Shown here: piece after piece, positions 20,585 to 23,400 of the stretch
How the letters are laid out: each line of letters opens with the position of its first letter
How positions within the stretch are numbered: the first letter of the stretch is position 1
DNA from: Rhizophagus irregularis
Taxonomy: Eukaryota
Direction of reading: 5' to 3'
DNA: 64,000 bases
NCBI RefSeq assembly: GCF_026210795.1
Contig: NC_089429.1
Location: 5,208,001 to 5,272,000 of the forward strand
Translations under genes and position numbers: made by a program
The notes under the pieces: generated by a model
The model's database searches: none
What the model saw: only the letters and a program-made list of their open reading frames with translations
Told to the model about the DNA's origin: nothing

Positions 20585-23400
20585 AAAACTCTGTAAATTC
20601 CATAATATAAGGTTATTAATTCCTGAGATATGAGCCTTATACGGAAAAAAGTTGGAAGGTATCAAACTTCTGGTAAGTTTCGCAACGAAACATTGCGAAA
20701 CTACTTTTTCATTTTTTAACGAAACATTTTTTAGTAACGCTTCGAAATATTATTCTTATTTTTAATTTCTTTAATCGGAACGTTGGCTAACGTTCCGATT
20801 TATTATTTTTTTAAATTTTTAAATCGGAACGTTTTTAACGTTCCAAAATATTCTTTTTTTTTTAATTTTTAATCGGAACGTTGGCTAACGTTCCGATTTA
20901 TTATTTTTTTTTAATTTTTAATCGGAACGTTGAAAAACGTTCGAAATATTGTTTTTTTTAAAAAATTTTTTAATCGGAACGTTGGCTAACGTTCCGATTA
21001 ATTTTTTTATTTCATTTTTTAATCGGAACGTTGAAAAACGTTCCGAAATATTGTTTTTTTTTGATTTCTTTAATCGGAACGTTAGCTAACGTTCTGATTA
21101 ATTTTTTTATTTCATTTTTTAATCGGAACGTTGGCTAACGTTCTGATTTACATTTTTTGTTCTTTTTTAACGAAACGTTTTTAACGTTTCGTTATTAACT
21201 TTTTTCATTCCTTTTAATCGAACGCTGAAAAACGCTCCCGATTTACATTTTTTTCTTTTTTAACGAAACGCTTTTAACGCTTCGTAATAACTTTTTTCTT
21301 TTTTAATCAGAACGTTGGCTAACGCTCCGATTTTTTTATTTTTTATTTTTTTTAATCTTTTAAGCGTTTTTAACGTTTCGTTAATAACTTTTTTTTTCTC
21401 ATTTTTTTTAATCGGAACGTTACCTAACGTTCCGATTTACATTTTTTTTCTTTTTTTAACGAAACGTTTTTAACGTTTCGTTATTAACTTTTTCTTTTTT
21501 TTTTAATCGGAATGTTGGCTAACGTTCTGATTTTTTTATTTTTTTATTTATTTTTTTAACGAAACGTTTTTAACGTTTCGTAATATTTTTTTTTAATTTT
21601 TTTTTTAATCGGAACGTTTTTTAACGTTCCAAAATAATTTTTTTTTGATTTTTTTAATCGGAACGTTGGCTAACGTTCCGATTTTTTCATTTTTTAACGA
21701 AACGTTAAAAAACGTTTCAAAAATTTTTTTTTAAATTTTTTGTTTTTAACGAAACGTATCTAACGTTTCGTTTTTTTATTTTTATATCCGCTTCCTGGAT
21801 GATTCAGGTAAAAATTATTTTTTTTAATTTTAATTTATTTTAACGAAACGTGACTAACGTTTTGTTTTTCTTCTTTTTAGGTCCGCGGATTTCTGGACGT
21901 TTTCTGAACAAGATTTTGAAGGTAAAACTTCAAAGTCTTTTCTTTATTTTTTGTTTTTAAAGAAACGATATTAACGTTTCTTTTTTCTTCTTTTTGTAGG
22001 TATCGAACTTTTGGATAGTACGATGGTGAGTTTCGCAACATTTGTTGCGAAGCTTTGATTTTTTAAAGAAACGATGCTAATGTTTCTTTTTTTTTTTCTT
22101 TTCTTTTGTAGATATCGGACTTTGGGTAGGCAAAATGTGAGTTTCGCAACGTTTCATTTCGTTGCGAAACTTTATTTTTAATTTTTTTTTAAGAAACGTT
22201 CTAACTGAACGTTTCTCTTTTTTTTTGTAGGTTCGATTTCCGTGAATTTTGAAATTTGTAAAATGGTAAGTTTCGTACGTTTCGTTACGAAACTGCCGTT
22301 TTTTTATTTTTTTCTTTAAGAAATGTTCTAACTGAACGTTTCTCTTTTTTGTTAGGTTTGATTTCTGGGAATTCGAAATTCGGAAAATGGTAAGTTTCGT
22401 AACGTTTTGTTATGAAACTTCCGTTGTTTTTTTTTATTTTTTTTAGGAAATATTTACTAATATTTCCTTTTTCTTTATTTAGGTTTCGGTTTGTCTTTGA
22501 TTAAAAACTTAAAATGGTAAGTTTCGTAACGTTTCATTTCGTTACGAAACTTAATAATAATTTTTTTATTTAATTAGGAAACTCTTACTAACGTTTCCTT
22601 TGATCTTTTTTTAGGTTTCAGAAATTTAAGAAAATCAAAAAAAACGGTAAGTTTCATACGAAACTTTCTTTTTTTTTTTGATTTATTCTTTATGAAACGT
22701 TCTAACTGAACTTTTCTCTTTTTTTTGTAGGTTCGATTTCTGGAAATTTTGAAATTTGGAAAACGGTAAGTTTCGTACGTTTCGTTACGAAACTTCCGTT
22801 TTTTTTTTGTTTTTTTTTAATTAGGAAATGTTTACTGACATTTCCTTTTTTTCTTGTAGGTTCCAGGAGTTTTGAGTTGGCCGGGAACTTGAGGTAAGTT
22901 TTGTTCATTATGAAACTTTCCTCATTTTTATTTTTTTAGGAAGCGTTTATTAACGTTTTCCTTCTTTTATTTTATAGGATCCATTCGGTGTTTTACTTTG
23001 GAAAAATGGTAAGTTTCGCAATCTTTGCGAAACTTAAATTTATTGACTTTTTTAGGAAACGTTTGTTAACGATTCCTTTTTTTTGTAGGCTTCGGTCAGG
23101 TTATTGGAATATGGATCAGATCGCAGAAGGTGATTACTTTTGTTGTGGAATATTATTAATGGACTTAGAGAAATTCATCAAAAACGAATGGTTGTGTAAA
23201 TTTCGTTAACGAAACTTTTGTGTTTTTTTTATTTGAAAACCCACCTTGTTATGGTTGTGTCACCAGGGGCGCTTTGTCAACGGAAATTTAGTACGTTGAT
23301 CGCTTAAAAATCCGCGGCAATCCAATTATAACAAGAGGTTAATTTCTTTAAATAATGTATTTGTATTATTTGTATTGTACTGTATTTTATAAATAAATTT
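20585..23400 (+). ncRNA. Putative highly spliced non-coding transcript with hairpin-structured introns and micro-exons
   Basis: TATAAAAA at 20556, first donor 20673, eleven further GT..AG introns between 21808 and 23088, AATAAA at 23392; no long spliced ORF. Transcription not demonstrated. Confidence 0.55.
20773..21772 (+). repeat. Array of about 21 palindromic units (about 49 bp period) with T-rich linkers
   Basis: Alternating AATCGGAACGTTGGCTAACGTTCCGATT and AACGAAACGTTTTTAACGTTTCGTT types. Confidence 0.92.

Follow-up and report, generated by a model that had tools for sequence, protein, structure and literature searches.

Non-autonomous DNA transposons of the Pack type, such as Pack-MULE and Pack-CACTA, carry gene fragments. 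The element described here shares with them terminal inverted repeats (TIRs), a target duplication, the apparent lack of a transposase and a captured scrap, in this case of a kinase gene, but differs in that its main cargo is an array of hairpin-bearing introns and that related arrays appear to sit in a hAT-like shell. Among described introns, the fungal introner-like elements (ILEs) come closest: in the excerpts of PMC3609843, they too are U2-type introns present in repeated copies, which carry canonical signals, are predicted to fold stably and show compensatory mutations, but they occur as near-identical copies in genes and adopt one fold of the whole intron. Our array likewise combines stable structure with compensatory changes; its units, however, are tandem and diverged, have their own non-coding micro-exons within a TIR transposon and form two local stems, and near-identical single insertions in unrelated genes were found neither in the window nor in the eight related loci, where the units are tandem and diverged without exception.

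Hairpins maintained by template switching form a further point of reference. According to the consulted part of PMC8794818, their footprints are multiple, instant compensations, stems that have been extended and loops that have been inverted, all of which recur here, although those hairpins lie in rRNA and other RNA genes and ours where an intron array carried by a transposon has its splice signals. In Cryptococcus, according to the available portion of PMC6643885 (citing Dumesic 2013), stalled spliceosomes trigger siRNA production through SCANR; transposon-linked transcripts and introns predicted to splice poorly are common to both cases, a resemblance only. Finally, the stem-loops that conceal branch sites and regulate poison exons, as presented in extracts of PMC11162794, also overlap the branch motif, but there the sites are single and conserved and belong to animal protein genes, whereas here part of the branch motifs lie in the loop and it is the donor that is masked.

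Full-text literature searches returned no description of such arrays, though repeat libraries, supplements and subscription papers could list them as unclassified families. Neither introns nor hairpins are mentioned in the searched sections of PMC8647823, nor hairpins, palindromes or tandem repeats in those of PMC13465315, and such arrays are absent from the passages listed for PMC10234402 (12 of 18). The array is a real variant of structured repeated introns, and apparently an undescribed one. As the same partial text of PMC8647823 reports, 24% of the Rhizophagus irregularis genome is unclassified repeat and 41% of its small-RNA loci are unannotated; the array gives a name to a repeat architecture in this lineage, and it offers a natural multi-copy test bed for the question of whether compensatory substitutions prove RNA selection.

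A DNA transposon enclosing a hairpin array

The window, by which we mean the whole 64,000-nucleotide stretch of DNA that was analysed, has a GC content of about 26% and repeat-rich kinase genes, and from its sequence looks like DNA of an arbuscular mycorrhizal fungus. Within it, a 3.7-kb element has split a host transposase gene, and at the split we find both its TIR and a target duplication, the two AG copies lying at 20032-33 and 23753-54. In two unrelated contigs, one each from sequencing runs X8 and X9, the match to the element breaks off exactly at 23752. The sole frame of at least 100 amino acids that is wholly internal to the element is antisense and of low complexity. Its features and those flanking it are as follows.

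18951..20033, minus strand, 3' part (DDE_1) of the interrupted pogo/Tc5 transposase
20034..23752, plus strand, non-autonomous DNA transposon enclosing the array, with 13-bp TIR CATCAGCAAGTTT and 2-bp target duplication AG
20386..20402, no strand assigned, two CACGTG boxes, promoter-like
20673..20700, plus strand, first donor, GTAAGT, with donor hairpin
20720..21775, plus strand, about 21 tandemly arrayed branch-type hairpins, period 49/100 bp, without donors or acceptors
23149..23193, plus strand, captured protein-kinase gene scrap in the last exon, 82% identical to window positions 3268-3311 and 80% to 34095-34139
23240..23332, no strand assigned, high-copy fragment common to other loci, with very high summed depth in several runs
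23753..24594, minus strand, 5' part (HTH_Tnp_Tc5) of the pogo/Tc5 transposase, its frame cut by the insertion at ..NP|RCFKN..

The CACGTG boxes may have a promoter role. On the minus strand, at 20200-20340, a divergent ordinary intron of 60 nt (GTGAGT..CAG) points away from them, which suggests a two-way promoter within the element. Downstream of the splice-free hairpin array, which may be an amplified intron interior, the T-tract near 21785 (21780-21790) ends in AT where other units have AG, so that the long first intron appears to lack a working acceptor. Reads across the kinase scrap continue into kinase sequence. Directly 3' of that scrap, at 23196-23217, there is a donor-like palindrome that no branch hairpin follows.

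Intron-like units and their splice signals

Between the hairpin array and the kinase scrap, from 21808 to 23088, lie 11 U2-type intron-like units of 73-98 nt, separated by exons of 25-41 nt:

21808..21880, plus strand, unit 1, branch hairpin only
21922..21999, plus strand, unit 2, branch hairpin only; retained in an X8 contig
22026..22111, plus strand, unit 3, donor and branch hairpins
22137..22230, plus strand, unit 4, donor and branch hairpins
22266..22355, plus strand, unit 5
22390..22482, plus strand, unit 6, branch stem TA..TA
22517..22614, plus strand, unit 7
22647..22730, plus strand, unit 8, short donor stem; spliced out in gene models P0003 and P0004
22766..22859, plus strand, unit 9, branch stem TG..CA
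22894..22977, plus strand, unit 10, retained in X5 and X8 contigs
23009..23088, plus strand, unit 11, retained in an X5 contig

Every unit has a GT donor (seven GTAAGT, two GTGAGT, two GTAAAA), a YTRAY motif 20-32 nt before the intron end and a TAG acceptor, so at the sequence level the original prediction was right to read these units as introns. No stem includes the acceptor TAG, which is nonetheless kept in 11 of 11 units, with a mean exon identity of 57% (45 pairs); this points to selection on the splice signals, now or recently. Because splicing was never observed, the argument for selection on splicing draws on this motif conservation.

Several familiar identities were considered and rejected. 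The joined exons contain 6-12 stops in each frame, with a longest stop-free stretch of 53 codons, and the two gene models that cover them disagree at both ends and skip an exon, which rules out a protein-coding reading. A CRISPR-like reading, with exons as foreign spacers, fails because the exons resemble one another. Rfam returned seven matches, every one far below the gathering score; with this result, stems of 7-14 bp and no hairpin spanning a whole intron, mirtrons and known Rfam RNAs are out as well.

An extra T-tract and TAG stand directly upstream of the branch hairpin at 22446, 22577, 22824, 22939 and 23055, and gene model P0004 appears to take the TAG at 22577.

Paired hairpins and covariation

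The five stems on which the original prediction was built all lie where it had placed them, with the arms that it quoted: donor stems at 22141-22170 (GTTTCGCAAC..GTTGCGAAAC) and 22521-22550 (GTTTCGTAAC..GTTACGAAAC), and branch stems at 22445-22468, 22823-22846 and 22193-22215. The arrangement is general among the nine units from 22026 on, in which a donor hairpin starts between intron positions +2 and +4 and a second hairpin surrounds the branch motif. When the nine introns of 22026-23088 were folded against dinucleotide shuffles, eight gave z scores of -3.8 to -7.6 and the one at 22647 gave -1.6.

Stem pairing is actively maintained. In an alignment of 18 introns (nine from the window, nine from related loci), 95.4% of donor-stem cells are paired against 88.2% after shuffling, with 0 of 500 shuffles as high; 15 cells carry two-sided changes against 3.4 in shuffles, and slid registers are 21-54% paired. 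For the branch stem, 52 unique arm pairs, a set from which six false matches had been removed and to which three missed hairpins had been added by hand, have 76% Watson-Crick pairs at the outer four positions against 49% in shuffles (0 of 5,000 as high). Both controls ignore the relatedness of the copies, which inflates them, so they show maintained pairing and do not give exact probabilities. Covariation thus exceeds shuffles in donor and branch stems across the window and the related loci, and the claim that pairing is kept while sequence changes holds overall, though not at 22576, 22694 and 23054, where we find true mismatches.

The decay of methylated CpG is a source of mutation at CpG sites, and the CG, TG and TA branch examples coincide with a CpG, a mutation hotspot. 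The CpG observed/expected ratio is 4.9 in the splice-free array and 2.3 in the introns, against 1.2 in the window. CpG decay alone is excluded as the origin of the covariation because compensation also takes in non-CpG transitions, transversions and two-sided indels, and because matched double changes exceed independence: the 52 unique branch stems hold four at the central CpG against about 0.2 expected from independent changes, a rough figure that ignores relatedness. Uncompensated CpG transitions in branch stems from all sources lie in the 5' arm in eight of nine cases, and once in the 3' arm, which carries the branch motif.

The two hairpins differ in what they are predicted to conceal. Donor positions +3 to +6 have a predicted unpaired probability of 0.06 in the nine two-hairpin introns and 0.49 in five ordinary window introns (p 0.003); for the branch motif, by contrast, predicted burial does not exceed that of controls (unpaired 0.41-0.97 against 0.25-0.71).

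Unspliced contigs from probable RNA runs

Reads of eight runs were aligned to the 3' half of the element, leaving out 20034-21740 (the tandem array and first exon). None of the five splice joints in one alignment, and none among the 15 listed of 20 in the other, matches a predicted intron, exons of 25-41 nt being a hindrance to detection. Nine near-identical contig pieces (0-9 differences) from the transcriptome-sized assemblies of X5, X7, X8 and X9 cross splice sites unspliced, and five of the nine contain whole introns with at least 14 nt on either side; these four are probable RNA runs, their RNA status being a guess. Neither the transposon around the array nor this retention of its introns in probable RNA contigs figured in the original prediction. 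In the raw RNA runs, reads matching this copy at 99% or more number 17 of 271, 16 of 292 and 13 of 391 aligned.

Probable footprints of template switching

Several hairpins bear probable marks of copying between their arms. Within the splice-free array, the loop at 21701 exactly inverts that at 21613 (0 mismatches as reverse complement against 4 forward), near-exact inversions (1 against 4 mismatches) are seen in the loop at 21027 and in a donor loop of related locus L002 compared with the 22390 loop, and for the 20673 donor loop the inverted fit is weakly better (4 against 7). At 779 in L002 and at 1943, 2065 and 2572 in L001, 3' arms have been lengthened to match adjacent exon bases. With inverted loops and multi-base templated arm changes both present, the footprints of template switching are found at this locus, and the loop inversions favour this mechanism, which the original prediction had named as its alternative, as the source of compensation.

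Orientation within the loops is biased. Of the unique intron-linked loops, 31 in number, 21 carry the branch motif forward only, one inverted only, three both ways and six neither way, a bias that fits the purging of inversions that would destroy the branch point; the splice-free array, with six forward and one inverted among 10 loops, is not clearly different.

A strand asymmetry of mismatches, G-T in excess of A-C, had been proposed as the mark of selection on RNA. In samples that are small and drawn from related copies, the branch-stem cores have 7 G-T and 11 A-C, which gives RNA-level selection no clear support. Counted over unique arms, the 10 branch stems of the window introns have 5 G-T and 1 A-C, the splice-free array 5 and 9, and the related loci, false matches included, 6 and 8. 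Hand counts gave 8 G-T against 1-2 A-C for donor and branch stems of the window (p 0.04-0.11), about 15 against 8 for pooled intron-linked stems (p 0.21) and 4 against 8 for the splice-free array; window introns and array differ with Fisher p = 0.09. The G-T lean is confined to the window introns and is a trend in the direction of RNA selection, not proof. Of the original statement that structure is selected, the maintained pairing stands, but selection at the RNA level is not shown, the asymmetry counts giving it no clear support and the loop inversions favouring copying.

Competing explanations

To the following reading we assign a probability of roughly one half: the locus is an array of introns with non-coding micro-exons carried in a transposon, its stems kept paired mainly through DNA template switching between arms and its splice signals held by selection. 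A repeat of about 125 nt, one exon with one intron, would have multiplied in tandem; as soon as donor and branch point each had an inverted repeat, copying from arm to arm would fix or double changes, invert loops and extend stems, and selection would purge those changes that destroy the GT, the branch motif or the AG, as their conservation suggests. With positions +3 to +6 of the intron predicted to lie inside the donor stem, splicing would be slow, and slow splicing would fit the unspliced contigs from probable RNA runs. Against copying speak the position of the hairpins, which coincides precisely with donor and branch site in all lineages seen, the second donor type of L001 included, and is poorly accounted for by chance, and the G-T lean of the window introns where the array leans to A-C.

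These same observations are the strength of the view that RNA structure itself is selected, with donor and branch hairpins tuning the splicing of a non-coding transcript by masking U1 pairing and showing the branch motif in a loop, and with template switching at most supplying mutations. Hairpins are linked to splice signals in all arrays, the intron-linked stems lean to G-T, the branch motif is not unusually buried, and stems that conceal branch sites regulate splicing in animals, on the evidence of the excerpts from PMC11162794. We hold this view to be possible, but it meets a wobble excess that is not significant, the lack of any predicted joint among those listed from eight runs over the 3' half and like covariation in branch-type stems of the splice-free array, where no intron exists. 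The same hairpin with and without splice sites makes mutation mechanism and selection separable by counting. The copying explanation and selection on RNA structure can coexist, and a modest RNA-level filter may act on top of copying.

Unspliced contigs only, the absence of an open reading frame, the probably dead acceptor near 21785, decayed units among the related loci and the small share of raw RNA reads that fit this copy would all suit a neutral relic: an intron-rich repeat that is dead and under no present selection, whose stems and splice-site appearance survive through recent tandem duplication and palindrome repair. Such a relic is improbable given a TAG that lies outside the stems and is still kept in every unit alongside exons only 57% alike, and a branch motif kept in forward orientation. 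Less probable again is a function at the DNA level, in which CpG-cored palindromes (AACGTT, TTCGAA) would serve the transposon as protein-binding or cruciform sites and the intron look would be inherited; the high CpG ratios and a strand-symmetric mismatch spectrum agree with it, but loop lengths ranging from 3 to about 16 nt do not suggest a site of fixed geometry for a dimer, one strand carries strong T tracts and splice motifs, and the arrays are internal rather than subterminal.

Related arrays and gene models

A scan of metagenomes yielded eight soil-metagenome contigs, all with related arrays, about 65-80% identical to the element over longer matches. Scans of viral and prokaryote collections returned nothing, or isolated hairpin matches, one per locus (L009-L123), which we took as chance. 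Three of the contigs (L002, L006 and L008) have a terminal repeat that differs from the element's, and L003 has subterminal repeats in common with them; two related contigs end in a weak scrap of a hAT dimerisation domain (E about 0.02, below the curated cut-off). From these sequences, some related arrays seem to occupy a different, hAT-like shell. L001 also has donors of another type, where the last bases of the exon pair with the first of the intron and leave the GT in the loop; at 600-1050 of this contig, the exons fold into hairpins themselves (AAGTCCAGAAC..GTTCCGGACTT).

A bolder and improbable reading, akin to SCANR, would make the hairpin-locked mini-intron array a mobile cargo module of mycorrhizal fungi, housed in unrelated transposon shells, whose transcript engages and stalls the spliceosome and so leads to small-RNA production from itself and from captured scraps (kinase, hAT transposase), or else shields the element from silencing. 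If this were true, template switching would make the hairpin locks self-repairing.

Consecutive exons of the array have matches in two gene models of Rhizophagus irregularis, RhiirA4_484996 and OCT59_011888. Both are predictions; they remove units 8 and 11 and pass straight from the donor at 22766 to the acceptor at 22977. At least two deposited 'hypothetical proteins' are likely artefacts of these arrays.

Elsewhere in the window, a second pogo-like transposase frame lies at 31339-32715, and a fragmented Helitron-like element with a PIF1 helicase at 25002-29493 on the minus strand. At 11653-15578, a kinase gene contains 22 copies of a 36-aa repeat, presumably Sel1-like, and has a CpG observed/expected ratio of 0.11 against the 1.2 of the window.
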